Part shown: piece by piece, positions 3,917 to 22,463 of the stretch
Numbering within the stretch: the first letter of the stretch is position 1
Layout of the letters: each line of letters begins with the position of its first letter
Assembly (NCBI GenBank): GCA_035299085.1
Contig: DATGXG010000002.1
Location: 70,066-134,065, forward strand
Reading direction: 5' to 3'
Origin: Bacteroidales bacterium
GTDB taxonomy: Bacteria > Bacteroidota > Bacteroidia > Bacteroidales > UBA10428
Length of the DNA: 64,000 nt
Notes under the pieces: generated by a model
Seen by the model: only the letters and a program-made list of their open reading frames with translations
The model's database searches: none
What the model was told of the DNA's origin: nothing
Program-made: the position numbers and the translations under genes

Positions 3917-4507
3917 TCACTTTATATGAATATCACCAAGGGCCGAAAGCTTTTGAATTACCTTATCATATGATCCTTTTCTTACATGAAGCTGCATGCT
4001 GCAATCCATTTCGTACACCGGATGCTCAGGGACCAGGTTCTCATCTTTCAGTATTCGCATGATGCTGTTCAGTTTTTCATAAGGAAATTTCAATTCAATG
4101 GTTTGTTCAATAAATCGTTCAGTGATAGCAGCATGTTCAAACATATCGGCTGTTGCCGACTTATAGGCATTGATGAGACCTCCGGTTCCCAGCAATGTTC
4201 CGCCGAAATACCTTACCACAACAACGAGGACATTGGTTACACCATGAGATAAAATCTGGTTATAGATCGGTTTACCGGCAGTTCCTGAAGGTTCACCGTC
4301 ATCATTCATCCTGGTTTGCTCTGATTCAACACCTATTCGGTAGGCATAACAATGATGCCTTGCATCATGATATTTCTTCCGGAGAACTTCAAGAATCTCA
4401 AGCGCTTCATTCACAGAGGTAACCGGATTACCAAATGCAAGAAACCGGCTGTTCCGGTCGCGGAATGTTCCTTCAGCAGGTTGATCTATGGTTCTGTAAG
4501 CATCCAT
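3917..4507 (-). CDS. YigZ/IMPACT (UPF0029) family protein
   Basis: 196 aa with KYHDARHHCYAYR and DDGEPSGTAGKPI motifs. Confidence 0.8.
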   Translation of the reverse strand: MDAYRTIDQPAEGTFRDRNSRFLAFGNPVTSVNEALEILEVLRKKYHDARHHCYAYRIGVESEQTRMNDDGEPSGTAGKPIYNQILSHGVTNVLVVVVRYFGGTLLGTGGLINAYKSATADMFEHAAITERFIEQTIELKFPYEKLNSIMRILKDENLVPEHPVYEMDCSMQLHVRKGSYDKVIQKLSALGDIHIK

Positions 4508-4526
4508 TCAACTGAAAATAGCAGGC

Positions 4527-4558
4527 AAAAAAAAAGGTTCATTTTTCAATGAACCTTT
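4527..4558 (-). terminator. Rho-independent terminator downstream of dnaA
   Basis: 10-bp stem aaaggttcat/atgaaccttt with a 6-nt loop. On the minus strand it is followed by a run of about 9 T. Confidence 0.75.
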
Positions 4559-4564
4559 TTGTAT

Positions 4565-5986
4565 CTAGAATTTGAGTTTCTTTTCTATTTCTTCGATCTG
4601 GCCCTTAAACTGTTTATCCGTTTCAACCAGATTATTCACTGTTTTACAGGCATGAAGAACCGTTGCATGATCTTTTCCACCGATTTGTGACCCGATGGTG
4701 GCAAGAGAAGATTTTGTAAGGTTCTTCGAAAAATACATGGCAACCTGTCTGGCCTGTACAATTTCTCTTTTTCTCGTCTTCGACTGCAGAGAATCAACAG
4801 GCACATCAAAGTAATTGCAAACTACTTTCTGGATATAATCGATTGAAACTTCACGTTTTGTATTCTTGATCAGTTTGTCGATCATTTCCTTGGCCAGGTT
4901 GAGCGTGATCTCCTTTTTATTCAGCGTGCTCTGGGCAAGTAACGAAATCAGGGCGCCTTCAAGTTCCCTCACATTATCGGTAATATGGGTGGCTATGTAT
5001 TCAACCACGTCATCAGGCAGCGTAATCCCGTCTTTATAGGTCTTCTGCTTCAGAATGGCAACCCTTGTCTCGTAGTCAGGTATCTGCAGATCAGCTGAAA
5101 GCCCCCATTTGAACCTCGAAAGCAGCCGCTGCTCCAAGCCCTGCAATTCAACCGGAGGTTTATCGCAGGTAAGGATGAGCTGTTTGCCCGACTGATGAAG
5201 ATGATTGAAAATATGGAAGAAGATATCCTGAGTCTTTTCCTTGCCTGCAAATTCATGAACATCATCAATTACAAGCACATCAATCATCTGGTAGAAATGG
5301 AGAAAATCGTTCTTTGTGTTATTCCTGATGGCCTCTACGAATTGTGTCTGAAATCGGTTGGCAGGAACATATAAAACTGTTTTATCCTGGAACTTATCTT
5401 TAATTTCAATACCTATGGCTTGTGCAAGATGGGTTTTACCCAGTCCGCTGTCACCATAGATCAGCAGGGGATTAAAGGCAGTTCCTCCTGGATTATTGGC
5501 CACGGCAAAGCCCGCTGAACGGGCAAGCCTGTTGCATTCACCTTCAACAAAATTATCGAAGGAATACTCAGCATTAAGCCTGGGATCGATGTTCATCTTC
5601 TTGATCCCCGGGAAAATAAAAGGATTCCGGATGGTGTTTTCTTCCACATTGATCGGCACACTTACCGGATTGTTCTTTATTTCAATCTGGTTTTTAGCAG
5701 GGAGCTTAATGGTATAGAGCTTTGTTGCAGACTGGCCTGGATTTTCCATGACAATGCTGTACTCCAGTTTTGCTTCATAGCCAAGTTCCTTCCTCAGCGT
5801 TTTACTGATGATGTCGATATACTTTTCTTCCAGGTATTCATAAAAGAATGGGCTTGGCACCTGGATGGTAAGTATTTTATTCTCTAACCGCAAAGGAACT
5901 ATGGGTTCAAACCATGTGCGAAAACTGATAGAAGGTACGTTGTCTTTTATAATTTTTAAGCAATTACTCCAGACTTCTTTGTGCAT
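4565..5986 (-). CDS. dnaA: Chromosomal replication initiator protein DnaA
   Basis: 473 aa. Walker A GDSGLGKTHL, box VII/sensor motifs, and the C-terminal DNA-binding helix IGGKDHATVLHA. Confidence 0.97.
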   Translation of the reverse strand: MHKEVWSNCLKIIKDNVPSISFRTWFEPIVPLRLENKILTIQVPSPFFYEYLEEKYIDIISKTLRKELGYEAKLEYSIVMENPGQSATKLYTIKLPAKNQIEIKNNPVSVPINVEENTIRNPFIFPGIKKMNIDPRLNAEYSFDNFVEGECNRLARSAGFAVANNPGGTAFNPLLIYGDSGLGKTHLAQAIGIEIKDKFQDKTVLYVPANRFQTQFVEAIRNNTKNDFLHFYQMIDVLVIDDVHEFAGKEKTQDIFFHIFNHLHQSGKQLILTCDKPPVELQGLEQRLLSRFKWGLSADLQIPDYETRVAILKQKTYKDGITLPDDVVEYIATHITDNVRELEGALISLLAQSTLNKKEITLNLAKEMIDKLIKNTKREVSIDYIQKVVCNYFDVPVDSLQSKTRKREIVQARQVAMYFSKNLTKSSLATIGSQIGGKDHATVLHACKTVNNLVETDKQFKGQIEEIEKKLKF

Positions 5987-6329
5987 ATTAAATTTTGGTT
6001 TAGGTTAGGTTAATAACTGTTTTTGTCGGCTGATTTATTGTCACAGCAAGATTGTGAAAAAAAAATAAAAAAAAAAATCATTTTTCGCTTGATTTTCTTC
6101 TAAAAAAGGTATCCATGTTTATTTCAGTTATTTAATGATTCAGAATTTTGACAAAAGTATAATGTATTGATAATGATTACATTGTAAAACTATCATGAAT
6201 ACAAATTTGTCTTTTAGGACCTTAAGTGAAATATGTAAAGTTTTAATTTTAGGAATAAAGGATTAAACACTTTTGATATGAACTAAACAAATCAAAACAG
6301 CATTTTTCACCATTGTTAATAACTTAAAT

Positions 6330-7259
6330 TTATTTATCCTTTTTACCGAAAACAGAAAGGTGAACATATCGTTTCGGATGTTCCCGGAGGTCAATTAACA
6401 GAGAATCAAGACTTGACAGCGCATTATTGAGATTGTTGTAAACAGAGTCATTTACCATCAGCTGACCGGCTGTACCCTGACCGTTATTGATTTTTGTAAA
6501 CAGGTCAGTGGTTTGCGCGAATGTTTCACTTGCATGTACAATCAGGGCTTTCAGTTCAGCCTGTTTCAGTGTGTCGGATATTGCGGCAAAATTGGCAAGG
6601 ATGTTAGAAATATTCTCGTTGCTTTTCTTAAGATTGGCGGTAACTTCATTCAGATTCCCGAGTGTCTGTCCAAGCTGGCCTGAAGGTTGAAGATTTGAGC
6701 GTAACGAAGCCGTTGCAGAATTGAGGTTTGCCATCATATTTTTGAGGTTAGTCCTTGTCTGCGGGTCAAGCACGTCATTCAACGATAGCAAAAGCGTATC
6801 CACTGCACCGATCACAGATTGTACCTTATTAATTACAGGATCAAGAACACTGGTGATGTCAGGTTCAATTCCTCCTATCAGCGTATCGCCCGATACATGA
6901 AATCCGTTTTCAGTTCCCGGAATTATGTCGATATCCTTTGATCCTGATATCAGGCTGCCACTCTTGAGCAGTAAAGTCGTATTCTTTTGCAACCTGATGT
7001 CTTTATCCATTGAAATCTTCACTACGATGCGGTTTACATTGTCTTTGTCGAACTGGATTTTTGTAACATTCCCGACTTTATACCCATTGAGATTGACGAC
7101 TGCATTTTCAACAAGACCTTTAACGTTATTATACACAGCATAATACTGTTGACTCGACTCAAAAATGTTTTTACCTTTCAGATAATTGATTCCCCAAATG
7201 GCAAGGGCCACTGCAACAAAGGCAACAAAACCGATTTTAAATTCTCTGGAAAATTTCAT
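6330..7259 (-). CDS. MlaD/MCE-domain membrane-anchored protein
   Basis: 309 aa. N-terminal TM anchor, MCE-like block VNLNGYKVGNVTKI, and a long helical N/L/S-rich C-terminus. Confidence 0.75.
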   Translation of the reverse strand: MKFSREFKIGFVAFVAVALAIWGINYLKGKNIFESSQQYYAVYNNVKGLVENAVVNLNGYKVGNVTKIQFDKDNVNRIVVKISMDKDIRLQKNTTLLLKSGSLISGSKDIDIIPGTENGFHVSGDTLIGGIEPDITSVLDPVINKVQSVIGAVDTLLLSLNDVLDPQTRTNLKNMMANLNSATASLRSNLQPSGQLGQTLGNLNEVTANLKKSNENISNILANFAAISDTLKQAELKALIVHASETFAQTTDLFTKINNGQGTAGQLMVNDSVYNNLNNALSSLDSLLIDLREHPKRYVHLSVFGKKDK

Positions 7260-7271
7260 GTTTTAGTATTT

Positions 7272-7449
7272 TAGGCTATTAGGCTATTAGGCTATTAGTT
7301 AGTTTATAATATGTTTATAACAAAGTTCTTAAATGGGACGTATAGGACCCATGGGACGCATGCGACTTCCCGTTTAATGCTTCGACTCCGCTCAGCATGA
7401 CATCCGGTATCCAGCATCTCACCTACTCCCTACTCCTTACTCCCTACTG
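7272..7449. repeat. Composite spacer of three different short-period tandem repeats: (TAGGCTAT)x3.4 at 7272-7298, a 9-mer GGGACNNAT x4 at 7334-7369, and (CTACTCC[C/T])x4 at 7422-7449
   Basis: Read directly. The last array runs into the stop codon of the amidase gene (7444-7446). Confidence 0.7.
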
Positions 7450-8637
7450 CTCCTTCAGCGCCCTATCAAGCGGAATAATGGTGTCATTCTTCACTGCAAT
7501 GATAAAGGCATCCGGAAATTTTTCCTTCACTGTTTTACTATAAGGAATAATATCTTTAAAGGTACTGCTGCTTCCGACAGCATACTTATAATAATTACCC
7601 ACCCTGTATTGCGAAACATCCTTCATGCCCTTAAACAGGTGTGATCCCTGTGTTATGGGTTTGAGTGATGCTGCAATCTGAACTTTAAACTGAATATCGG
7701 GCTTTTTCGTTTCAAAACGATTGTCAGGAGCAACGGGATCAGGATCGACACCCGAAGAAGTATCGGTCGGATCCAGACTATTGCTGTCGGTAATTACGAC
7801 ATGGCGATTTCCCAAAGAAGCCGTCAGCGTTGATTTTGAATCCACAATATCTTTATAGTCCCTGAAAGCCCTGTAAATTGCCGATGCCAGGTAATCCTGT
7901 CCCTGCTTGCTCATCAGAAACGCCTCTTCATCAGGGTTTGAAAGAAAACCTGTTTCCACAAGTATTCCGGGCATTGCTGACTGCGCAAGGACAAGTAACC
8001 CTTGTCGCTTAACACCCTTATCACTCCTTTGTGCCTTTTCCCTGAATTGGTCCTGAACCAGCCCTGCAATGATGACGCTCTGGTCAAAATACAAGTTCTG
8101 CATCAGCGAGAACATGATATACGATTCCGGATCATTGGGATCAAAGCCGGCATACTTAGTATTATAATTATCCTCTAACAAAATAACGGAGTTTTCCTTT
8201 TTTGCCACCTCAAAATTCTCACTTGTCCTATTTAGGCCCAAAACCAAGGTCATGGTTCCTGAAATCTGCGGATTACTGATGGCATTTACATGAATCGATA
8301 TAATGAGGTCGGCTTTATTTTTATTGGCTATTTCCGCTCTTTCCAAAAGGGGAACAAACACATCGGTTTTACGGGTATAAATCACTTTAACTTCCGGTAT
8401 GTTCTCTTCAATATATTTCCCTGCTTTTAAAGCGATTGCAAGAGCGAGTTCCTTTTCTGTAGCATGTTTACCGATCGAGCCCGGATCTTTGCCACCATGC
8501 CCGGCATCTATAACCACCGTTTTTAGCTTATACCCGTTATCAGGAGTCTGAGCAGCTATCGATACCGGCCCGAGGATGAAAACATAAAAAAGTATAAAAA
8601 ACCTCTGAAAAATGAGCACGGTACATTTTTTGTTCAT
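7444..8637 (-). CDS. N-acetylmuramoyl-L-alanine amidase (Amidase_3) with a SPOR-like C-terminal domain
   Basis: 397 aa. Signal peptide, VVIDAGHGGKDPG and ISIHVNA motifs. C-terminal FKVQIAAS...YKYAVG is SPOR-like. Confidence 0.85.
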   Translation of the reverse strand: MNKKCTVLIFQRFFILFYVFILGPVSIAAQTPDNGYKLKTVVIDAGHGGKDPGSIGKHATEKELALAIALKAGKYIEENIPEVKVIYTRKTDVFVPLLERAEIANKNKADLIISIHVNAISNPQISGTMTLVLGLNRTSENFEVAKKENSVILLEDNYNTKYAGFDPNDPESYIMFSLMQNLYFDQSVIIAGLVQDQFREKAQRSDKGVKRQGLLVLAQSAMPGILVETGFLSNPDEEAFLMSKQGQDYLASAIYRAFRDYKDIVDSKSTLTASLGNRHVVITDSNSLDPTDTSSGVDPDPVAPDNRFETKKPDIQFKVQIAASLKPITQGSHLFKGMKDVSQYRVGNYYKYAVGSSSTFKDIIPYSKTVKEKFPDAFIIAVKNDTIIPLDRALKEQ

Positions 8638-8695: not shown

Positions 8696-8744
8696 GCATT
8701 TCTTATTGATTCAATAAGCAGCATTTTTGGGGAACAATGTTCTT

Positions 8745-11432
8745 ATGTTTTCTAACAAACAACGAAATATAAAAATTTACCGCTTGTCTCCTTCCCTTTT
8801 CAGGCTTCTGCTTATTCCCCTGCTGGCTTTGATGACCCTTAACATGGCAGGCCAGCAGAATACTCAAAAACCCGATTCCACGGTATTTGCCGATTCTGTT
8901 AGAGTTAAGGCTGACACGCTGTTGAATGACAGTACAAAAAAAGCCAAGAAACCTCTGCTTGAAGCCGAAATAAAATACTCTTCCGAAGACTCGCTTATTT
9001 TTTCAATCGGGCAGCAAAAAGTCTTCCTATACGACAAAGGCGTTGTAAATTACCAGGATATCGGGTTGACAGGTAACTATATCGAATTTGATTATAACAC
9101 CCGTATAGCCATGGCTGCCGGGGCCATTGATTCGAGCGGACAATTGACAGGCAGGCCCGAATTTACACAGGGTACCGAAAAATTTGATTTCGATACCATG
9201 CGATACAATTTTCAAACCCGGAAAGCCAAGATTAAAAGTATTATTACCCAGCAGGGTGAAGGATACTTGCACAGTACCGTTACAAAAAGAATGGCAAACG
9301 GGGAAATCAATATCAAAAATGGTAAGTATACTACCTGCGATGCTCCCCATCCTCATTTTTACATTGCACTTACCAAAGCAATTTCAATACCCGGAAAGAG
9401 AACCGTGGCAGGACCCGGATACCTCGTTTTTGAAGACATACCTATGCCACTCGGATTGCCGTTTGGCTTTTTTCCCAATACAAACAAGCGAACGTCAGGA
9501 TTCATCATACCTGAGTTCCGCGACGAACAGCGTCGCGGTTTCGGACTTGAAAACGGGGGATGGTATTTTGCCTTTAACGATTACCTGGATGTATCTATCG
9601 CCGGTTCAATTTACTCAAGGGGCACCTGGGGAGTGAAGGCTGTGAGCCAATATCTGAAACGATATAAATACAACGGTCAGTTTTCAGCCCAGTTTTTCAT
9701 GAATAAAATCAACGACGATCCCAGTTCAATTTCATCCAGGGATTTCAAAATTAACTGGAGTCATTCACAAGATCCGAAAGCAAACCCCACCCGCACCTTC
9801 AGGGCAAGCGTCGATTTTGCAACCAGTTCTTTTGAAAAACGACAGGGCACCAATTTTGGCAATATTCTCGAAAATCAGAAGAACTCGAGTATAGCGTTCA
9901 CAAAAAGATGGCCCGGAAGGCCGTTTAATTTTGCTGCCAACCTGAACGCTTCACAAAACACAAGAAGCAAGACTATAAGCGCCACCCTGCCAAGCGTTAC
10001 TTTTAACATGGACCGCATTTACCCGTTCAGGGGAAAAAAGGATGACGGTGATTATAACTGGCTACAGAATATACAGATCAGCTATAATTCCAAACTGATA
10101 AACAGGATGAATAATATCGGGGATTCTGTATTTTTTACCGAAAGCACATTGAAGAAAATGGAAAGCGGTTTTGCACATACAATCCCGATTTCACTGGATA
10201 ATATCAGAATTCTTAAAAACCTGATCACCATCACTCCCGGAGTAAGTTACAACGGGGTTGTATTCCCTTATTACATTAGGAAAACACATGTTTCGGACAC
10301 TCTATTTTATGGGAATAAAAATTATATAACCGATACAATCCACAGAGTTACTTATGCCCATGCATTCTCTGCTTCGATCGGGGTGAGTGCTTCTCCGAAA
10401 CTTTATGGAATGTACACGAATAAACGGGCTAACCCAAAAATCATCGCAGTTCGACATGTAATGTCACCAAAGGCGTCCTTCAGTTTTACACCCGACATGA
10501 AAGGACTTGTTCCTGACTACTATCGCAAAGTTCCTACTAATTCTTCAATTGGCGCTAACAGAACTTATGAAGAATATTCGATGTATGCGGGACAAATGAA
10601 TTCAACACCGTCGGTGAATGGTAAAAGCGGATCATTATCCCTTGGTTTGGGCAATAACGTTGAAATGAAGGTACGTTCAAAGAACGACTCGACCGGAAAA
10701 GGGAAAAAAGTCACTATTCTTGACAACCTTGATTTTGCCACAAGTTACCGCCCGTTCTCGCCTGAGTTCAAATGGGCGCCTGTAACAATGAATGCCCGCA
10801 GTACCTTATTCAATAAGAACCTGCAAATCCAGTTAAGTTCAACATTTGATCCTTACGGACTCAATGAAAAAGGAAACAGGCAGGATGTATTCCTTATCAA
10901 TCAGACAGGAAAACTATTCCGGTTAACCACAGTGCAGTTCAGTACGGGTTTCCGTTTGCAATCAGCAGCAGGAAAGAAAAAGGACAGCAATGCAAAAACC
11001 GGGGGACAGACTGATATCGATAAGGGTTACGAAAATACCCAGGAAATGACGGATATGTATGAACAAGAAGGTGGCTCGGTAAGGAATGACTACGTTGATT
11101 TTGATATTCCCTGGTCGGTTAATATCGACTATTCATTCCGCTATGATAAACCCGGGTATGTAGCCCGTAAAACGAGCTCAGTGAGGATGAGCGGGGATAT
11201 CAGTATAACACCAAAATGGAAGATCGGGCTTAATTCATCCTATGACTTCGTTGCCAAGGAATTGAGTGCCACCAATATCAGCGTATACAGGGATCTTCAT
11301 TGCTGGGAAATGAAAATTGGTGTGGTACCTTTTGGTAACTACAAAAGCTACTACTTCACCATCAATGCCAAATCAGCCATCCTCCGCGACCTGAAGTGGG
11401 ATAAGAGGAAGAGCTGGAGGGATAATTTCTAG
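8745..11432 (+). CDS. Large outer-membrane protein, putative LPS-assembly (LptD-like) protein of Bacteroidetes
   Basis: About 895 aa, hydrophobic N-terminal signal, beta-rich and aromatic-rich throughout. Divergent amidase/LptD-like synteny is common in Bacteroidetes. The listed ORF starts at TTG 8727; the first ATG is at 8745. Confidence 0.65.
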   Translation: MFSNKQRNIKIYRLSPSLFRLLLIPLLALMTLNMAGQQNTQKPDSTVFADSVRVKADTLLNDSTKKAKKPLLEAEIKYSSEDSLIFSIGQQKVFLYDKGVVNYQDIGLTGNYIEFDYNTRIAMAAGAIDSSGQLTGRPEFTQGTEKFDFDTMRYNFQTRKAKIKSIITQQGEGYLHSTVTKRMANGEINIKNGKYTTCDAPHPHFYIALTKAISIPGKRTVAGPGYLVFEDIPMPLGLPFGFFPNTNKRTSGFIIPEFRDEQRRGFGLENGGWYFAFNDYLDVSIAGSIYSRGTWGVKAVSQYLKRYKYNGQFSAQFFMNKINDDPSSISSRDFKINWSHSQDPKANPTRTFRASVDFATSSFEKRQGTNFGNILENQKNSSIAFTKRWPGRPFNFAANLNASQNTRSKTISATLPSVTFNMDRIYPFRGKKDDGDYNWLQNIQISYNSKLINRMNNIGDSVFFTESTLKKMESGFAHTIPISLDNIRILKNLITITPGVSYNGVVFPYYIRKTHVSDTLFYGNKNYITDTIHRVTYAHAFSASIGVSASPKLYGMYTNKRANPKIIAVRHVMSPKASFSFTPDMKGLVPDYYRKVPTNSSIGANRTYEEYSMYAGQMNSTPSVNGKSGSLSLGLGNNVEMKVRSKNDSTGKGKKVTILDNLDFATSYRPFSPEFKWAPVTMNARSTLFNKNLQIQLSSTFDPYGLNEKGNRQDVFLINQTGKLFRLTTVQFSTGFRLQSAAGKKKDSNAKTGGQTDIDKGYENTQEMTDMYEQEGGSVRNDYVDFDIPWSVNIDYSFRYDKPGYVARKTSSVRMSGDISITPKWKIGLNSSYDFVAKELSATNISVYRDLHCWEMKIGVVPFGNYKSYYFTINAKSAILRDLKWDKRKSWRDNF

Positions 11433-11524: not shown

Positions 11525-13000
11525 TTAATAGGCCACTGCAAACAGTACCCTCTGTTTTGAAGGTTTTCCTGTTAAAATACACTTTCCTTCCTCTTGCGGG
11601 TTATCCAGCGGAATACAACGGATCGTGGCCTTGGTTTCTTCCTTGATCTTTGCCTCGGTTTCAGCAGTTCCGTCCCAGTGAGCATAAGCAAAACCACCTT
11701 TTACTTCAACTATTTCCCTGAATTCATCCCACGAATTAACATAGAATTTATTGCTATCCCTGAAAGTCAAAGCTTTCTGGTATATATTCTGCTGAATTTC
11801 TACCAGCAGATCCTTCACATAGGTTTCTATTCCTTCAAGAGGTAATATCTTTTTTTCAAAAGTATCGCGACGGGCCACTTCCACCGTATTGTTCTCAAGG
11901 TCTCTGGGCCCGATTGCCAGTCGAACCGGTATGCCCTTTAGCTCATATTCAGCAAATTTCCATCCGGGCTTCTGAGTGTCGCGGCCATCATATTTAACTG
12001 AAATGCCAAGATTGGTAAGCGATTTTCTGATGCTTTCGGCTTTTTCGGAGATGGCTTGTAATTGTTCGTCGTTTTTATGAATAGGAACGATGACAACCTG
12101 GATCGGAGCCAACCGGGGCGGCAATACAAGTCCGTTATCATCGGAGTGTGCCATAATTAGTGCACCTATAAGACGAGTGGTTACACCCCATGAAGTTGCC
12201 CATACATAATCCAGTTTACCTTCCTTATTCAGGAATTTCACATCAAAGGCGCGGGCGAAATTCTGTCCCAGGAAATGAGATGTACCACCCTGCAAGGCTT
12301 TTCCATCCTGCATAAGCGCTTCAATAGTGTAGGTGGCAATGGCACCGGCGAACTTTTCAGATTCTGTTTTTACACCTTTAATTACCGGTACTGCCAGGAA
12401 GTTCTCAGCGAAAGTTGCATAGACATCTAGCATTTTCCTTGTTTCTTCCTCAGCCTCTTCACGGGTAGCATGAGCGGTATGGCCTTCCTGCCAAAGAAAC
12501 TCAGTTGTGCGAAGGAACAAACGGGTTCTCATTTCCCATCTTACTACGTTGGCCCACTGGTTAATCAGGATGGGCAGATCGCGGTATGACTGAATCCAGT
12601 TTTTATAGGTGTTCCATATTATGGTTTCCGAAGTAGGCCTTACAATAAGTTCTTCTTCGAGCTTGGCGTTTTCATCAACAACAAGTCCCTTGCCCTTTTC
12701 ATCATTTTTAAGCCTGTAATGAGTTACTACGGCACATTCTTTGGCGAATCCTTCAACATGCTCCGCTTCACGACTAAAAAAAGACTTTGGTATGAAAAGA
12801 GGAAAGTATGCATTAACATGACCGGTTTCCTTAAACATCCTGTCGAGCTCGCCCTGTATCTTTTCCCAGATGGCGTAACCATATGGCTTAATAACCATGC
12901 ACCCTCTGACAGCGGAACTTTCTGCAAGGTCAGCTTTTATTACAAGATCGTTATACCATTGAGAATAATTCTCTTTTCTGCTTGTTAATTCTTTAGCCAT
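11525..13000 (-). CDS. proS: Proline--tRNA ligase (archaeal/eukaryote-like type, no editing insertion)
   Basis: 491 aa. N-terminus [26 protein letters not shown] and class II motifs. C-terminal ...[10 protein letters not shown] is typical. Confidence 0.95.
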
Positions 13001-13091
13001 AACAAATATTTGGTATAGAATTTGTGTTTACTTTTACGAAATTTTAACGTTTGCAAAATAAAGAATAAAAAGTTTAAATTCACATAAAAAT

Positions 13092-13097
13092 AGGAGG
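13092..13097 (+). promoter_or_regulatory. Canonical Shine-Dalgarno sequence AGGAGG
   Basis: aggagg-taaggtc-ATG, a 7-nt spacer to the ATG at 13105. None of the other CDS start regions I checked in the window has a comparable site. Confidence 0.5.
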
Positions 13098-13104
13098 TAA
13101 GGTC

Positions 13105-14547
13105 ATGAAAACTATTTTACGTTCATATTTTGTCCTGGTTCTTGGCATTTTTGCCTTCTCCGGCGCCATGGGTCAGAAGACTTCTCAGGAATATGACGAT
13201 ATGTACTATATACCTTCCGAAAAGAAGGCTGTACAGGCCACTGATAACAAGACTCCTGCAACCCAACAGGAAGCAACAGAATCAAGGCAACCCAGCGATT
13301 ACGAAAAATACATCCAAAATCTCGAGCAGCAGCGCAAAACCGGCAAAAACAAAAAAGCTAATCAGCAGGCTCAGCAGGGTGTTACCTATACCGATTCAGT
13401 TCAGTATGCTGAAGATCAGAACTACGTTGACAACAATGCAGATGCTGAATACAGCGAAGAACAGGCTGACGGTAATACTTATGTAACCAATAATTTCTAT
13501 GGAAGCGATTATTATTATGCATCCAGGATCCGCAGGTTCTATGATCCGTTTTACTCGGTAGGTTATTTTGACTATTACGATCCTTTCTTTTATTCGCCGG
13601 GGTGGTCATTCAGTATGTCATTCGGTTATCCCTATTATGGGTATGGCTATGGGTATGGCTGGCCATATTATTCACCGTATGGTTATTACGATAATTTTTA
13701 TAATCCCTATTATTATTCATCATGGTACGGATATAATCCTTACTGGAGAAGTCCCTACTACAGTTTCTGGGATTACTACGGGTATGGAACTTACCCCGGA
13801 TATTACGGCGGATATCATAATCATTATGCTCATAATGACCGTCCTGTTTATTACGGTCCCAGGAGAACCATTGAAAACAACCGTATTGCAGGTGCCACTG
13901 CTTATAACGGAGCCCGCAGGGTTAGCAGCGTGTCACCTTCGGACGGTCGCAGGTCAGTTGCCAGCGGAAATACCACCGGTGTAAAAAGCACTTCAGGCAC
14001 AACAACAACCCGCCGTGCATATGGTACAACCGAATCTTACAGGAGAACCGGATCCAACGGAACATCGGTTACTACAAGATCGGCTTCAACCACTCCGACT
14101 ATGAGGCAGTCAGGAAATTCACAGGAAAGACCGGTATATACAAGGCCATCGTCACAGAATAATTCAACTTACAGTGGATCCAATCGCGGTGCGTCATCAT
14201 CCGGATCAGGATATACCCGCTCTTCAGGCAGCAACGGTACTTCCTCAACTTACAGGTCGGGAAGTTCATCAACCTATAGCAGGCCCAGTAGCAGCTCATC
14301 ATCTTCATACAGCCGTCCCAGCTATTCAACCGGTTCATCAAATTACAGCTCAGGCAGCAACAGGTCAAGCAGTTATTCCAGCGGCTCGTCACCATCCTAT
14401 TCATCAGGAAGCAGCAGGAGCAGCAGCAGCAGTAGTTCTTACAGCGGCGGTAGCAGGTCCAGTGGAGGAAGCAGCTATTCAGGCGGTGGATCTTCATCTG
14501 GTTCAAGCAGCCATTCAGGAGGCGGCAGTTCAGGTGGAAGAAGGTAA
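13105..14547 (+). CDS. Secreted low-complexity protein: signal peptide, acidic/Gln-rich segment, Tyr/Gly/Pro/Trp-rich core, Ser/Gly/Thr/Arg/Tyr-rich tail
   Basis: 480 aa. MKTILRSYFVLVLGIFAFSGAMG signal. Core YPYYGYGYGYGWPYYSPYGYYDNFYNPYYYSSWYGYNPYW. Tail ...SYSSGSSRSSSSSSSYSGGSRSSGGSSYSGGGSSSGSSSHSGGGSSGGRR. Confidence 0.75.
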   Translation: MKTILRSYFVLVLGIFAFSGAMGQKTSQEYDDMYYIPSEKKAVQATDNKTPATQQEATESRQPSDYEKYIQNLEQQRKTGKNKKANQQAQQGVTYTDSVQYAEDQNYVDNNADAEYSEEQADGNTYVTNNFYGSDYYYASRIRRFYDPFYSVGYFDYYDPFFYSPGWSFSMSFGYPYYGYGYGYGWPYYSPYGYYDNFYNPYYYSSWYGYNPYWRSPYYSFWDYYGYGTYPGYYGGYHNHYAHNDRPVYYGPRRTIENNRIAGATAYNGARRVSSVSPSDGRRSVASGNTTGVKSTSGTTTTRRAYGTTESYRRTGSNGTSVTTRSASTTPTMRQSGNSQERPVYTRPSSQNNSTYSGSNRGASSSGSGYTRSSGSNGTSSTYRSGSSSTYSRPSSSSSSSYSRPSYSTGSSNYSSGSNRSSSYSSGSSPSYSSGSSRSSSSSSSYSGGSRSSGGSSYSGGGSSSGSSSHSGGGSSGGRR

Positions 14548-14600
14548 TTCAGGTCCTGAGCAAAAAGTTTAATTTCCAGTTTTTACTAACATCGCAAACT

Positions 14601-16121
14601 ATGAAAAAGATTCTTTCATTGGTGATAGTATCAGTATGCATTTCTTCAGCCATACAGGCCCAGTTAGCCAGCCCTGATCAGGAAGCCTGGGATGCCATAA
14701 AGTTTTCACAAAACTTCCCTACTTTGTCTGCAAGAAGCTTATCAATGGGTGGAGCATTTAGTTCACTTGGAGGGGACTTCTCATCTAGCTATATCAATCC
14801 GGCAGGGCTGGGTCTATATCGTAAATCAGAATTTGTGTTTTCTCCTTACCTGGGTTTATCTACTACAAAAGCCAATTATCTGGGTGAAACAAATACTGAT
14901 TACAAATATCAATTTAGTCTAAGTAATATTGGATATGTTGGCACCTTTATCACAAATAAGGAAAAAGGCCTTGTTAGTGCTTCATATGCCCTAGGTTATA
15001 ACAGGATCAATAATTTCAATAACAGGGTCAACATCGTTGGTACAAACGAACGAACTTCGCTAATTGATTATTTTATGAATCCTGGCGGCAATAATATAAA
15101 CGGAACCGATCCTGAAGATTTGGATCCCTTTACAAACAGGCTGGCCTTCGATGCCTATTTAATTGATACAACTGCAGGCACCAATTTTGAATACACTACC
15201 CCGGTTATGTATCGTAATCAGCAACGACGGATAATTGAATCCCGCGGTGGAACAGGACAATGGAACTTTGCCTTTGGGTTGAATTTCAATAATATATGGT
15301 ATGTGGGGGCAGGGTTGGGAATCAACCAAATCTCATATGAAACGCAAATGAGTCATACTGAAATCAACCGTGATCCAGCCGAATCGGACTTTGCTAATTT
15401 TACTTATACTGAAAAAGAGGTTGTCAACGGTCATGGAATAAATTTCAATTTTGGCACCATGGTACGCTTGTTTGAAATTGTCCGACTTGGGGCCAGTTTC
15501 CAAACTCCAACTTTTTACCGACTTGACGAATCCTATAAAAATTCAATGTATTCTGAATTCAAGTCTGGTTTTGTACCTACTGATGATTTGGGAGAGATTT
15601 ATGCAAATGGTGAGTATTCGTATAGGATGGCCACACCAATGAAATTACAGGCCGGCGCCAGCATACAACTTGGCAAAATGGGTATAATTTCTTCAGATAT
15701 AGAATTCCTTGATTATTCGAAAATCCATTTTAAATCAATAGATGATCCTTCATTTGAGGACAACAATGATTTCTTACCAGATATGTATGGGAAAGTTGTC
15801 AATTTTAAAATAGGTGGTGAGGCCAGATTTGACAATCTTTTTGTCAGACTTGGCGGTGGTCTGTACCAAAATCCATATGCAACTTCTGATTTGACACGGT
15901 TTTACGGTAAAAATAATACAAGCGAACTTACTGCAGGATTTGGTTTCAGAACCAGTTCCTTCTTCTTTGATTTGGGATTCTCATCCCTTTCAAACAAAAA
16001 AGACAAGTACCTGCTTTATTCTGCCTACGATCCCAGAAGTACAAATGATCTGATTGATAATGTTTCGACAATTAACCAAAACCGATTCAGGTTTGTAGCC
16101 TCTCTCGGATTCAGATTTTAG
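14601..16121 (+). CDS. Beta-barrel outer-membrane protein (FadL/PorV-like fold family suspected)
   Basis: 506 aa. Signal peptide ending AIQAQ, LSARSLSMGGAFSSLGGD motif like FadL/PorV N-termini, alternating aromatic beta-strand pattern, C-terminal ...SLGFRF. Confidence 0.7.
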   Translation: MKKILSLVIVSVCISSAIQAQLASPDQEAWDAIKFSQNFPTLSARSLSMGGAFSSLGGDFSSSYINPAGLGLYRKSEFVFSPYLGLSTTKANYLGETNTDYKYQFSLSNIGYVGTFITNKEKGLVSASYALGYNRINNFNNRVNIVGTNERTSLIDYFMNPGGNNINGTDPEDLDPFTNRLAFDAYLIDTTAGTNFEYTTPVMYRNQQRRIIESRGGTGQWNFAFGLNFNNIWYVGAGLGINQISYETQMSHTEINRDPAESDFANFTYTEKEVVNGHGINFNFGTMVRLFEIVRLGASFQTPTFYRLDESYKNSMYSEFKSGFVPTDDLGEIYANGEYSYRMATPMKLQAGASIQLGKMGIISSDIEFLDYSKIHFKSIDDPSFEDNNDFLPDMYGKVVNFKIGGEARFDNLFVRLGGGLYQNPYATSDLTRFYGKNNTSELTAGFGFRTSSFFFDLGFSSLSNKKDKYLLYSAYDPRSTNDLIDNVSTINQNRFRFVASLGFRF

Positions 16122-16148
16122 AAGTTTTCAAATTCCAGTTTGAGTGTG

Positions 16149-16178
16149 CGGCTCAGGTTAATCCCTGAGCCGTTTTTT
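16149..16178 (+). terminator. Rho-independent terminator after the OMP gene
   Basis: 9-bp GC-rich stem cggctcagg/cctgagccg, loop ttaatc, then TTTTTT. The T-run overlaps the trmD stop codon. Confidence 0.8.
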
Positions 16179-16887
16179 ATTCCCTGTCCTTTCCCTTTCT
16201 CCTGTTTACAGGTTCTCTGAGTAAATCAGGCCGAAGTTTTAATGTTCTTTCTTCCGATTGCTGATGACGCCATTCATCAATGTTCTTCTGATGCCCTGAT
16301 ATGAGTATTTCAGGAACTTTCCAGCCTTTATATTCTGCCGGACGGGTATACACAGGGGGAGCAAGCAAATTATCCTGGAATGAATCCGTAAGTGCAGATG
16401 TTTCATCAGAAATGCCTCCCGGAAGAAGCCTTACAACACAATCCGTAATTACGGCTGCAGCCAGTTCGCCACCGGACAATACATAATCACCAACCGAAAT
16501 TTCACAGGTAACCAGGTAATCCCTTACCCGCTGATCCACTCCTTTATAATGGCCGCATAACAATATTATATTCTCACATGTGGCCAGGTAATTTGCCCGT
16601 CTCTGGCTGAAAGTCTCACCATCGGGAGTGAGGTATATAATCTCATCATAGCTGCGTTCACTTTTCAGCTTGGTAATCAGCAGGTCAATAGGTTCGATGC
16701 ACATGACCATACCTGCACCTCCTCCAAAAGAATAATCATCAACCTGCTTTTGCTTATTCTGAGAGTAGTCCCTTATGTTGTGAATCACAATTTCAACAAC
16801 GTTTTTCTCCCGGGCCCTTTTTATGATGGAATGGCTGAGAGGACTTTCGAGCAGTTCAGGAAGGATTGTCAGTATGTCTATGCGCAT
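16177..16887 (-). CDS. trmD: tRNA (guanine37-N1)-methyltransferase
   Basis: 236 aa. [12 protein letters not shown] start, [13 protein letters not shown] and [13 protein letters not shown] motifs. Confidence 0.95.
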
Positions 16888-19869: not shown

Positions 19870-20151
19870 ATGTTAAATGAAAATGAAGTAGTAATGCTGA
19901 TTCTTGGAATTGGCGTACTTTTTCTGATCATTATGAATTTAGATCATATAAGGAAAATCAATTCATGGGTTTTCCTTATTGCATCGTATTGTTTTCTCCT
20001 CACCGCTTGGGTATTCACTGTTCTTGAAGGCTTTTTCCTTGAAAATCTGCTTAACTTTTCCGAACATATTTCTTATGCTGTAAGTTCTGTTCTTCTTCTG
20101 ATCTGGTGTCACAAAGCTACTCAAAAGAAAAAACAGGAGGCTAAAGCATGA
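19870..20151 (+). CDS. Small three-TM membrane protein, translationally coupled to the following sensor kinase
   Basis: 93 aa with three hydrophobic segments. Its stop overlaps the kinase start (ATGA at 20148-20151). Confidence 0.5.
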   Translation: MLNENEVVMLILGIGVLFLIIMNLDHIRKINSWVFLIASYCFLLTAWVFTVLEGFFLENLLNFSEHISYAVSSVLLLIWCHKATQKKKQEAKA

Positions 20152-22463
20152 ACGGAATTGCCGGACTTGACATCTTCAGTTTTTCAATCCTTTTCATGGG
20201 ACTTTTGTTCCTGTTTTTCAGATCTGCAACGCCTACCCGTGACATCCGGTTTCTTCTTGGCCTCTTAATTACAGATACACTGGCTTATGTTTTTTTCATG
20301 ATACTGGAATGGCTTAACATTACTCACCAGCTTGAATCGGTTGAAAATCTTGTCGGCGCTTCTGTTCCGATGATGTGGGCTTTCTTTATTTATTCTATTA
20401 TTCAGAACGGTATTACTAAGGACCTGGCTATAAACCGTGAAAATCTGAGGATTACGCTCAACTCAATAGGTGATGCGGTGATTGCAACAGACGTTAAAGG
20501 CAGGATCACTCAACTGAATCCCGCTGCAGAATCACTTCTCAGCTTAAAAGTAAGCGATTGCCTGGGGAAGAGAACAGAAGAGTTATTCACCTTCATTGAA
20601 ATTTCAACACGAAAAAAAATAAGCAATCCGATTGAGAGAGTGCTGGAATCAGGAAAACTGATCAAAATCGGACTGAATACCGTTCTCCAGACAAAATCGA
20701 ATAAGGAGTTTTATATTTCGGACAGCGCCGCTCCCATTTATAATGATCATAATGAAATCTGCGGGGTTGTGCTTGTATTCAGCGACATGACGGAACGTTT
20801 CAGGCAGGAAGAAAAAATACGCCAGCATGAGGAGCGGTTCAAACTGGCCATTGGAGCATCAAAAGCCGCATTGTGGGATTGGTTCTTTGATACAGGCAAA
20901 GTGGTATATGATGACCGTTGGGCTGAAATAATCGGATATACTCTGCAAGAACTTGAACCTCTCACAATGGATACCTGGCGTAAACGTGTGCATCCGGGTG
21001 ATCTCATTAACCTTGAGGAACTCATTGAAGCACATTCACGCGGAACAATTGATTTTATTGAACATGAGAGCCGGCTGAAACATAAGAACGGTGAATGGAT
21101 ATGGGTGATAGCCCGCGGGAGAATAGTTCAGCGGGATAAACAGAATAACCCGTTGCGAATGACAGGCACATTGATCGATATCTCACGGCAAAAGAAAAAT
21201 GAAGATGATCTGAAGGCTCAGATTGAACAAAACCGGATGCTTAACCAGGAATATGCTCAAAAAAACAAAGAACTTATTGAAAGCATTGATCATATAAGGA
21301 AAATAAATGCAGAACTTGTTGAAGCCAGGATGAACGCAGAAGAAAGCTATAAACTCAAATCTGCTTTCCTGGCCAATATGAGCCATGAAATCCGCACTCC
21401 GATGAATGGAATCATCGGGTTTTCAGAACTCCTTAATGATTCAAAAATTCCCGAGGATAAACGGATTAATTACGCCGGAATAGTAATTGACAGCAGCAAA
21501 CAACTGTTGAACATAGTTAATGATATCCTTGATTTCTCACGGATGGAAACTGGTAAGATTTCCCTGTCCTTTGAAGAAGTTGTGGTGAATGATATGATGA
21601 ACATATTATATGCCTTTTTTGAGCCACAGGCAAAGGCAAAATCATTGAAACTTACAGCTTACAAACCTCTGAGCAATGATAAAAGCGTTATTATAACCGA
21701 TAAAACGCGTTTAAGACAGATTCTTACAAACCTCCTGAACAATGCAATCAAGTTCACAGATCAAGGCAGTGTTGAATTCGGTTATAAGAAAAGCAGGACT
21801 GAAATTGAATTCTTTGTGGAAGATACCGGAATAGGCATTTCCCCGGAACTACATGAAAAAATATTCGAACCGTTCAGGCAGGCTGAACTGGAAATAAGCA
21901 ACCAGTTTGGAGGAACAGGATTGGGATTGAGCATTTCAAGAAAACTTACAGAGTACCTGGATGGAAAGATATGGCTGGATTCGAAACCCGGTGCAGGTTC
22001 AACATTTCATTTTACATTGCCTTTAAAACCGGATAAATCAGGTGATACAAAAATCAGAAGTGAAAAAAGATTGCCAAATAAAAAAATGTATAATATGTTA
22101 GTTCTTGTTGTGGAAGATGATGATGTCAACTACCTGTTTCTTGAAACCATCCTGTCAAAAAGCCAGATCAAAACAATCCGGGCAGCCAACGGATTGGAAG
22201 CTGTCGAACTCTGTCGTCAGAATCAGGATATAAACCTTGTTCTGATGGATATCAAGCTCCCTTTCTTAAACGGATACGACGCGACCCGTCAGATTAAGGA
22301 GTTCCGACCGCAACTGCCCATTATTGCCCAGACAGCCTACGCGATGCATGAGGACAGAAAAAAAGCCATGGATGCAGGTTGCAATGGATATATTTCAAAA
22401 CCCATCATTGCAACTGAATTGTTTAATCTTATTGACACCTACGGGAAGAAAATGTCATCCTGA
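20148..22463 (+). CDS. Hybrid sensor histidine kinase/response regulator (about 4 TM, 2 PAS/PAC, HisKA, HATPase, REC)
   Basis: 771 aa. H-box SHEIRTPMNGI, G-boxes DTGIGI/GGTGLGL, REC with LVLMDIKLP...AQTAYAM. Confidence 0.9.
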   Translation: MNGIAGLDIFSFSILFMGLLFLFFRSATPTRDIRFLLGLLITDTLAYVFFMILEWLNITHQLESVENLVGASVPMMWAFFIYSIIQNGITKDLAINRENLRITLNSIGDAVIATDVKGRITQLNPAAESLLSLKVSDCLGKRTEELFTFIEISTRKKISNPIERVLESGKLIKIGLNTVLQTKSNKEFYISDSAAPIYNDHNEICGVVLVFSDMTERFRQEEKIRQHEERFKLAIGASKAALWDWFFDTGKVVYDDRWAEIIGYTLQELEPLTMDTWRKRVHPGDLINLEELIEAHSRGTIDFIEHESRLKHKNGEWIWVIARGRIVQRDKQNNPLRMTGTLIDISRQKKNEDDLKAQIEQNRMLNQEYAQKNKELIESIDHIRKINAELVEARMNAEESYKLKSAFLANMSHEIRTPMNGIIGFSELLNDSKIPEDKRINYAGIVIDSSKQLLNIVNDILDFSRMETGKISLSFEEVVVNDMMNILYAFFEPQAKAKSLKLTAYKPLSNDKSVIITDKTRLRQILTNLLNNAIKFTDQGSVEFGYKKSRTEIEFFVEDTGIGISPELHEKIFEPFRQAELEISNQFGGTGLGLSISRKLTEYLDGKIWLDSKPGAGSTFHFTLPLKPDKSGDTKIRSEKRLPNKKMYNMLVLVVEDDDVNYLFLETILSKSQIKTIRAANGLEAVELCRQNQDINLVLMDIKLPFLNGYDATRQIKEFRPQLPIIAQTAYAMHEDRKKAMDAGCNGYISKPIIATELFNLIDTYGKKMSS

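Follow-up and report, generated by a model that had tools for sequence, protein, structure and literature searches.

A conserved gene pair of Bacteroidales-type Bacteroidota encodes an exported protein of predicted disorder and an outer-membrane barrel of predicted FadL-superfamily fold

Results

Two co-oriented genes between proS and trmD

Here, we describe a pair of genes in a 64,000-nucleotide (nt) stretch of a Bacteroidales genome (assembly GCA_035299085.1, contig DATGXG010000002.1, forward-strand positions 70,066 to 134,065), which we refer to in its entirety as the window. The first gene encodes an exported, Tyr/Gly/Ser-rich protein of predicted disorder, which we call the partner, and the second encodes an outer-membrane barrel. 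A preliminary description, made from the sequence alone, had placed open reading frames (ORFs) of 480 and 506 amino acids (aa), 53 nt apart from each other, between proS and trmD. Re-deriving the coordinates gave the same layout, with which Pfam agreed:

11525..13000, minus strand: proS, a divergent neighbour outside the operon (Pfam ProRS-C_1, HGTP_anticodon and tRNA-synt_2b)
13105..14547, plus strand: partner gene, with a 480-aa product that is exported and predicted to be disordered (from the ORF list)
14548..14600, plus strand: spacer of 53 nt, free of any terminator-like site
14601..16121, plus strand: outer-membrane barrel gene (predicted FadL superfamily), 506 aa (from the ORF list)
16148..16180, plus strand: intrinsic terminator separating the convergent barrel gene and trmD
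16177..16887, minus strand: trmD, its identity confirmed by Pfam

The partner gene is also an annotated gene in the source assembly. The strong terminator that had been described after the barrel gene was found again as a G-C-rich hairpin (16148-16173) with a 10-bp stem containing 7 G-C pairs and a 6-nt loop, followed by a T-run. No such element occurs in the spacer, which is consistent with co-transcription of the partner and barrel genes. No TAnnTTTG, the Bacteroidota -7 motif, was found 5' of the partner gene in the window itself, where the promoter was not located, and a scan for sigma-70 promoters returned 4 sites against 8.5 expected, that is, no excess over chance.

The pair is conserved and proS is its only conserved neighbour

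We fetched 80 genomic loci from Bacteroidales metagenome-assembled genomes (MAGs) and from cultured Marinifilum, Labilibaculum, Mangrovibacterium, Geofilum and Perlabentimonas. For the synteny test, we used the 72 loci that extend 1.7 kb or more upstream of the barrel gene, and a locus was scored as paired if a same-strand ORF with a Tyr, Gly, Ser and Pro fraction (Y+G+S+P) of at least 0.33 ended no more than 400 nt before the barrel gene. In all 72 loci (72/72), a co-oriented Y/G/S/P-rich ORF of 408-621 aa was found just 5' of the barrel gene, and this pairing persists over barrel identities to the window protein from 63% to about 29%. As a background, the same Y+G+S+P value is reached by 10 of the 320 remaining long ORFs at these loci. 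These ten ORFs (at least 300 aa) may be additional low-complexity proteins or translations of an alternative frame. For the reverse test, we took three partner homologues that a sequence search had identified, and the next gene belonged to the barrel family in each case (3/3, profile E-values of 1e-110 to 1e-138). Synteny is thus retained among the relatives, and the barrels form a family of their own that always occurs with the partner; loss of synteny, or barrels scattered among ordinary FadL transporters, had been named beforehand as outcomes that would speak against a unit. The median spacer between the two genes across loci is 80 nt, and the -7 motif is present in 3 of 71 spacers versus 23 of 71 regions upstream of the partner.

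The sole conserved flank of the cassette is proS. According to pooled Pfam scans, it is the first upstream gene in 50 of 70 loci and the second in 11-12 more (~61/70). The first downstream gene lies on the opposite strand in 51 of 66 loci, and trmD is found downstream in 1/66. The earlier view of a self-contained unit between proS and trmD therefore holds for the unit itself, which is co-oriented throughout, and for its proS flank, but not for trmD. No accessory genes conserved beside the cassette were found in the pooled Pfam scans of the flanks, and the functional unit consists of the partner and barrel genes alone. The anciently fixed chromosomal position suggests that the pair is inherited vertically in Bacteroidales-type Bacteroidota and serves a core function in the envelope, and it speaks against a mobile accessory island. 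No tractable gut or oral genera were found to carry it, as a search from a Bacteroidaceae-labelled locus gave environmental MAGs only; the cultured carriers are of Marinilabiliales type.

Several other neighbours were seen at individual loci. Just past proS, the window contains a gene for a Bacteroidota-type LptD (PF19838) together with an Amidase_3 gene (8727-11432, plus strand; compare positions 68-1261 of locus L081). LptD adjacency was found in 1 of 67 loci, namely in the window's nearest relative (L001), and this LptD/Amidase_3 envelope neighbourhood, common to the window and L001 only, is probably coincidental. Given these frequencies, we rejected a functional link of the pair to LptD or trmD. 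Downstream of the barrel gene, a WbqC-like gene comes first in 26 of 66 loci, followed by an AIR-carboxylase-like (AIRC) gene in 18 of 62. As these genes are mostly convergent and not universal, they were rejected as members of the unit. In L001, the barrel gene is followed on the same strand by a DUF6452 and DUF6048 gene pair (7460-8579, plus strand).

The partner combines an acidic head, an aromatic core and a basic tail

The Y+G+S+P fraction of the partner is 0.517, compared with 0.216 +/- 0.036 in the other 29 window ORFs of at least 300 aa, so its composition is far beyond chance. The preliminary description had divided the protein into a Sec signal followed by acidic/Gln-rich, aromatic and S/G/T/R/Y parts. 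Re-measuring the segments gave the compositions as described, and the strings that had been quoted, YPYYGYGYGYGW... and ...GGSSGGRR in the partner and ...GFRF at the C-terminus of the barrel, are all present in the translations. The segments of the partner are:

13105..13173, plus strand: signal peptide, aa 1-23, of signal peptidase I (SPase-I) type, AMG followed by Gln at +1 (putative cleavage site)
13192..13215, plus strand: YDDMYYIP motif, aa 30-37, the best-conserved element of the partner
13216..13494, plus strand: acidic Q/E/D/N-rich head, aa 38-130, holding the predicted SDYEKY helix (aa 65-89) and a D-S-V sequon
13495..13890, plus strand: aromatic core, aa 131-262, with YASRIRRF (aa 138-145), PGWSFS, a Y/G/P/W-rich run and YGPRR
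13891..14544, plus strand: basic Ser/Arg/Gly/Thr/Tyr tail, aa 263-480, ending in ...GGRR

Residues 26-130 have an isoelectric point (pI) of 4.3 and a net charge of -9, 40 of the 132 residues at positions 131-262 are Tyr, and residues 263-480, with 84 Ser and 22 Arg, have a pI of 11.3 and a net charge of +20. We calculated family statistics over 71 partner copies. The mean net charge per residue is negative at the start of the chain (-0.14 over the first fifth) and positive at its end (+0.12 over the last fifth), the second fifth is 40% aromatic, and the last fifth is 49% Ser. Arg accounts for 8.2% of the residues versus 2.0% for Lys, and 57 of the 71 copies end in RR. The partner had no match to any model in Pfam or NCBIfam, and so no C-terminal domain for type IX secretion (the T9SS) was detected. 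Its AlphaFold2 model predicts disorder (mean predicted local distance difference test (pLDDT) of 40.5, predicted template modelling score (pTM) of 0.17), with the signal helix and the helix at aa 65-89 around SDYEKY as the only confident elements.

Could such a sequence be an artefact of DNA repeats? We rejected DNA tandem repeats as the origin of the low complexity, since Tandem Repeats Finder detected two tiny arrays only and Ser is encoded by all six codons. An unconserved frame of the low-complexity ORF, also listed beforehand as a possible outcome, was not what we observed. Compared with the two closest relatives (L001 and L002), 19 of 21 and 20 of 22 indels are multiples of three, third codon positions vary most, and more than half of the identical residues are encoded by different codons. 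These comparisons indicate that the partner reading frame is under protein-level selection.

The partner had been likened to eukaryotic [G/S]Y[G/S] low-complexity domains. This likeness stands in terms of composition and predicted disorder: like FUS-type low-complexity and RGG domains, the partner is Y/G/S/R/Q/N-rich with very few aliphatic residues. It does not extend to the motif itself, as the partner contains 10 [G/S]Y[G/S] occurrences versus 7.2 +/- 2.4 in shuffled sequences. The count is explained by composition, and we rejected a FUS-type motif enrichment. The resemblance to FUS-type domains is compositional only, without homology, and the partner differs from them in residing in an exported envelope compartment. 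The Bacillus spore-coat protein CotG, a Ser/Arg/Tyr-rich structural protein, is compositionally similar to the partner as well.

Despite its low complexity, the partner family has conserved short motifs. In the partner alignment, D31 and Y34 do not vary and at least 90% of the copies share D32 and P37, and a YDDxY[YF]-like motif was found in 65 of 71. Further motifs include GNTYVxNNYY, YASRIRRF (RIRRF in 41/71), PGWSFS, YGPRR and PxYTxP. The sequence D-[S/T]-[L/V/I/T/A] matches the general O-glycosylation motif of Bacteroidota. This sequon occurs at a conserved position in 53 of 71 partners, a few dozen residues before RIRRF, and corresponds to D97-S98-V99 in the window (aa 97-99, nt 13393-13401). 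With 0.87 sequons per partner N-terminal region versus 0.36 expected from composition, this suggests a single conserved O-glycan on the exported partner.

Using the N-terminal 260 aa of the partner (signal, acidic head and aromatic core) as a query, we identified 40 relatives. All of these are named "hypothetical protein" in their sources, bar one with a generic JGI label. Many database copies of the partner (P0121-P0160) are 150-300 aa long and broken off within the low-complexity region, and in locus L082 the partner (4001-5616) and the barrel (5880-7338) are each split into two called genes. Assembly and gene calling seem to break often at the low-complexity region, leaving the partner family under-represented and mis-annotated.

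The barrel is a probable distinct branch of the FadL superfamily

A word-indexed search with the barrel protein identified 923 relatives. In an exhaustive search, 3,479 clusters at 50% identity matched the barrel profile at an E-value of at most 1e-30, nearly all of them full-length (470-520 aa). The AlphaFold2 model, for which a 26-sequence alignment was used, has a pLDDT of 82.8 and a pTM of 0.79 and contains a helical N-terminal plug within a β-barrel. Its best Foldseek match in the PDB is BtBamG (9hiv_F, E-value of 3.5e-17), with a template modelling (TM) score of 0.56 when normalised to the query and 0.68 when normalised to the target. Further top matches are E. coli FadL, the FadL-like chain 9n2d_B of FjBAM (F. 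johnsoniae), PgBAM 9hjm_F, TodX and CymD. For FadL, TodX and CymD, the E-values are ~1e-10 to 1e-16 and the target-normalised TM scores 0.59-0.66. Judged by this model, the barrel has a FadL-superfamily fold that is plugged at its N-terminus, in agreement with the FadL side of the FadL/PorV-type barrel for which the preliminary description had proposed such a structure search. The list of 50 fold matches does not include PorV, CsgG or FapF.

At the sequence level, the barrel is harder to place. Pfam returned no matches for the window barrel at an E-value of at most 0.01, so it falls below PF03349 (Toluene_X), the family of FadL, TodX and OMPP1. Six of 26 diverse relatives match Toluene_X weakly (best E-value of 5e-8), some barrel sub-clades carry precomputed PF03349 matches, and automatic names in some clades read "outer membrane protein transport protein" or "long-subunit fatty acid transport protein". 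The barrel shares the fold, an NPA-bearing plug and a C-terminal aromatic β-signal with the PF03349 proteins; it differs from them in its missing Pfam match, apparently longer N-terminal tail, obligate low-complexity partner and lack of a catabolic context.

The conservation of the barrel is concentrated near its N-terminus, in the following segment:

14661..14828, plus strand: mature N-terminal tail and plug, aa 21-76, including NPAG at aa 66-69 (nt 14796-14807)

Residues Q21, N66, P67, A68 and G69 are invariant in 26 diverse barrel members. The plug (aa 41-76) is the top-conserved barrel segment, with a mean top-residue frequency of 0.80 versus 0.58 overall and the consensus ...ARSxSMGGAFxSLGGDFSSxxxNPAGLGLYRK. 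By predicted Q-rule cleavage and without a structural alignment, 39 residues lie between the mature N-terminus and NPA in a typical member and 45 in the window barrel, versus 32 in E. coli FadL, where NPA is at mature residues 33-35 (numbering judged from PDB mutant names).

The N-terminal motif had been called FadL/PorV-like. The fold and the NPAG plug motif agree with the FadL half of this label, and the PorV half is weakened. The NCBIfam models PorV_fam and PorVQ2 give scores of 33.8 and 34 bits where the cut-offs are 90 and 325, with matches confined to the N-terminal plug region. Like PorV/PorQ and the PorP/SprF-cargo systems, which are Bacteroidota barrels holding surface proteins, the cassette includes a barrel with a weak plug match, and cognate cargo genes are often adjacent to those of PorP/SprF-type barrels (PMC9143113). 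Unlike the PorV/PorQ systems, however, the window barrel remains far below the cut-offs and the partner ends in a Ser-rich RR tail. Considering the sub-threshold scores and the fold matches listed, we rejected a T9SS link.

Searches of PDB sequences with the barrel (phmmer at an E-value of at most 10, family profile at an E-value of at most 1) matched no chain, and the BamG chains 9hiv_F, 9hjm_F and 9n2d_B, which are in the PDB structure library, should be in the searched 2026 copy of PDB sequences. We therefore rejected orthology to BamG, FadL or PorV by sequence. BamG orthologues are reported to be detectable by BlastP in all but one screened free-living Bacteroidota genome (PMC12578637). 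As the barrel has no sequence match to BamG, we infer that it is an additional, distinct branch of the FadL superfamily rather than the BamG orthologue of its lineage.

The fold and the invariant NPAG, with the Toluene_X matches and transport names of some clades, would suit a FadL-type importer of a hydrophobic or aromatic compound with the Tyr-rich partner as a capture accessory, and lipoproteins accompany Bacteroidota outer-membrane transporters in other cases, which is an analogy. We nonetheless consider uptake unlikely. The partner has no folded binding domain in its predicted structure, no catabolic or regulatory genes are linked to the pair, which occupies a housekeeping locus by proS, and its barrel has a conserved N-terminal tail that seems to be extended. 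A conserved extension of 10-12 residues at the N-terminus is what sets BamG apart from transporting FadL channels (PMC12578637, PMC12611786).

With BamG as the top structural match, the cassette could also be an accessory of outer-membrane biogenesis, in which the barrel would work with BamA as BamG does and the Tyr/Gly-rich chain would provide a holdase-like aromatic milieu for nascent outer-membrane proteins or surface lipoproteins. In Bacteroidota, BamA itself carries an unexplained flexible loop (EL3) rich in Tyr, Gly and Asn (PMC12578637), and the locus of the cassette is a core one that is inherited vertically and, in the window and L001, has LptD nearby. Against such a role, the barrel appears to be an additional protein with no sequence relationship to BamG, LptD adjacency is restricted to a single locus among the relatives, and the partner is unlike BamH. 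We regard this role as improbable.

Most partners carry a lipid anchor that some lineages have replaced

A lipobox Cys is present in 64 of 71 partner copies. This lipid anchor argues for a tethered rather than a released product. The window partner belongs to the remaining copies: its signal peptide ends in ...FAFSGAMG followed by QK, with no Cys and no lipobox, and represents an SPase-I, Q-rule type. A Gln after SPase-I cleavage is known as the Bacteroidetes Q-rule (PMC5837995).

We compared the replacement of the anchor in the copies from the window, P0128, L019, L060 and L064. In the window clade (window, L001 and L002), the lipobox is replaced by an SPase-I site and Gln, and the close relative P0128 retains ...IGAC followed by SSVMGQK. 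A similar change from Cys to SPase-I/Gln was found in L019 and L060, whose barrels are ~31-33% identical to that of the window, so their anchors were possibly lost independently of the window clade. The YDD motif is kept in all of these Cys-less copies, where it is nearer to the new N-terminus. In 50 of the 64 lipoprotein partners, the DD of the motif is at +11 or +12 from the lipid-anchor Cys. A constant spacing of this sort is what one would expect if a membrane protein keeps the peptide at a set depth.

These anchors also bear on the preliminary description's analogy with curli (CsgA/CsgG) and Fap, according to which the barrel would be a pore that exports the low-complexity chain to form an extracellular amyloid, glue or coacervate matrix. 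Those systems (CsgA/CsgG/CsgF and FapC/FapF) likewise encode a substrate alongside an outer-membrane protein, and the substrate is exported in an unfolded state. The cassette has the substrate-then-barrel order in one operon, the partner, if disordered as predicted, could thread a narrow pore, its composition would favour adhesion and phase separation, and several clades, including that of the window, have no lipid anchor. One report describes a surface condensate for the curli-system protein CsgF (PMC10133297). Still, the analogy fits poorly. Most partners are lipoproteins, and the barrel architecture differs from those of curli and Fap: the fold is monomeric and of FadL type, conservation peaks in the plug, and CsgG and FapF are absent among the fold matches listed. 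The partner has no imperfect amyloid repeats and no β-solenoid in its AlphaFold2 model, and its neighbourhood lacks conserved genes for a chaperone, nucleator or protease. Export of this kind is therefore a doubtful explanation for the pair.

The partner gene has a rare Shine-Dalgarno site

Upstream of the partner gene, we identified an element that is uncommon in these bacteria:

13091..13096, plus strand: Shine-Dalgarno (SD) sequence AGGAGG, ending 8 nt before the partner ATG (13105)

Among the 71 partner genes, 53 have GGAG or GAGG at positions -20 to -4, including 44 with GGAGG and 30 with AGGAGG, usually ~7 nt from the ATG. As controls, a mock window and the region before the barrel gene each gave 0/71, and 2 of 48 genes in the window had such an element. 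In the class Bacteroidia, a strong SD precedes only ~1.7% of genes, the ribosomes do not respond to the SD except when bS21 or bS18 is missing from them, and the products of the known SD-bearing genes are ribosomal proteins (PMC7797042). We found no literature report of a non-ribosomal SD-bearing family in Bacteroidia. Judging from this sequence element, the partner gene may be a non-ribosomal member of a small, ribosome-state-responsive gene set.

The only other SD-like case in our crude gene map of the window is ACAGGAGGCTAA, just 5' of a 771-aa hybrid PAS/histidine-kinase/receiver gene (20148-22463, plus strand). The start of this gene overlaps a small membrane ORF (19870-20151), and the SD-like element could reflect translational coupling or chance.

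Discussion

We found no description of the partner-barrel pair in Pfam, NCBIfam or the searchable literature, in line with the earlier remark that it was not a recognised system. Parts of it have precedents. The barrel superfamily is known, as is the principle of a FadL-like barrel with a cognate lipoprotein, which was established by the BAM structures of 2025. Our analysis shows that the two genes occur together in synteny, which fold the barrel has, that the partner is predicted to be disordered and how its motifs and charges are arranged; the physical interaction, location and function that we propose below go beyond this.

The closest precedents are BamG-BamH and BamG2-BamH2. There, too, a FadL-family barrel is paired with a lipoprotein whose N-terminus is conserved; the barrel has an extended and conserved tail at its N-terminus, to which the tail of the window barrel may correspond, and BamG2 and BamH2 appear to share one operon. 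The window barrel is ~100 residues longer. The N-terminal end of BamH is inserted as a wedge between two BamG strands, with its lipid at the barrel surface (PMC12578637), and BamG2-BamH2 (Bt1785-Bt1786) is a putative operon with a similar complex predicted by AlphaFold2 (PMC12578637, PMC12611786). By analogy, we tentatively favour a reading in which the barrel docks the N-terminal peptide of the partner and tethers a disordered polymer to the envelope; this seems to us a serious possibility that falls somewhat short of being probable.

Four properties of the pair would be expected if the barrel docks this peptide: the obligate pairing, the fixed distance between anchor and motif, the retention of the motif after loss of the lipid and the conserved tail and plug of the barrel. 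We infer that the N-terminal tail of the barrel parallels the conserved N-terminal extension of BamG. The partner follows one fixed plan: it begins with a lipid anchor or an unlipidated N-terminus and continues through a brief S/T spacer, YDDxYYxP, the acidic head with its one probable O-glycosylation site, the aromatic Tyr/Gly/Pro/Trp core and the long basic Arg/Ser tail up to RR. In the proposed arrangement, the barrel would serve as the outer-membrane dock for the conserved N-terminal peptide of the partner and possibly as the route of this peptide and its lipid to the outer leaflet. The resulting stable complex would display a multivalent Tyr/Arg/Ser polymer of ~450 residues as an envelope-tethered brush or gel-like layer. 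As to the side of the membrane, surface exposure is plausible because of the BamH analogy and because a periplasmic lipoprotein would need no dedicated barrel. On balance, we lean slightly towards the cell surface over the periplasm for the partner.

Several observations weigh against docking of this kind and against display at the surface. No sequence similarity to BamG is detectable in the barrel, and the TM scores of the fold match are moderate (0.56 for the query, 0.68 for the target). Our figure for the N-terminal extension of the barrel relies on predicted signal cleavage rather than a structural alignment. The partner, a disordered chain of ~410-620 aa by prediction, is nothing like the folded, arch-shaped scaffold of BamH. 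Moreover, BamH-K bear the classical export signal of Bacteroidota lipoproteins (PMC12578637), which for a BamH-type protein we took as 2 or more acidic residues among the six that follow the Cys, whereas 63 of the 64 lipoprotein partners have no acidic residue at +1 to +6. They thus lack this export signal, which favours a periplasmic orientation.

This last point leads to an alternative in which the partner is a periplasmic tether. As a lipoprotein in the inner leaflet of the outer membrane, it would bind peptidoglycan or an anionic polymer through its Arg/Ser tail, and the barrel would only stabilise or position it. The strongly basic tail with its conserved terminal RR would be suited to this, and the missing surface-export signal agrees with it. 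However, a tether of this kind leaves both the dedicated barrel in all 72 loci and the loss of the anchor with retention of the YDD motif unexplained, and it is in our view not a likely account of the pair.

Returning to the docked polymer, a more elaborate version can be imagined in which the barrel is an exposure device for a single client. The acyl chains and anchor peptide would pass through a lateral opening of the barrel to the outer leaflet, the partner would form a FUS-like, phase-separating surface layer of a new kind for bacteria (a hydrogel or brush), and translation would be gated through the rare SD by the state of the ribosome (lacking bS18 or bS21). We consider this combination decidedly unlikely and mention it as speculation.

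What is new in the pair is the client, a long FUS-like polymer of predicted disorder that is unlike anything described in that role. If the docked-polymer reading is true, clamping of a lipoprotein N-terminus by a FadL-like barrel would extend beyond BAM to a second widespread module whose client is a long disordered polymer, and envelope components of that class have received very little study in bacteria. The barrel family, with its 3,479 clusters, has no curated model and most copies are named "hypothetical protein", so that the pair is largely invisible to routine annotation. The SD site of the partner gene offers a natural reporter for the ribosome-heterogeneity model, and the pair as a whole bears on how lipoproteins are placed at the Bacteroidota surface.

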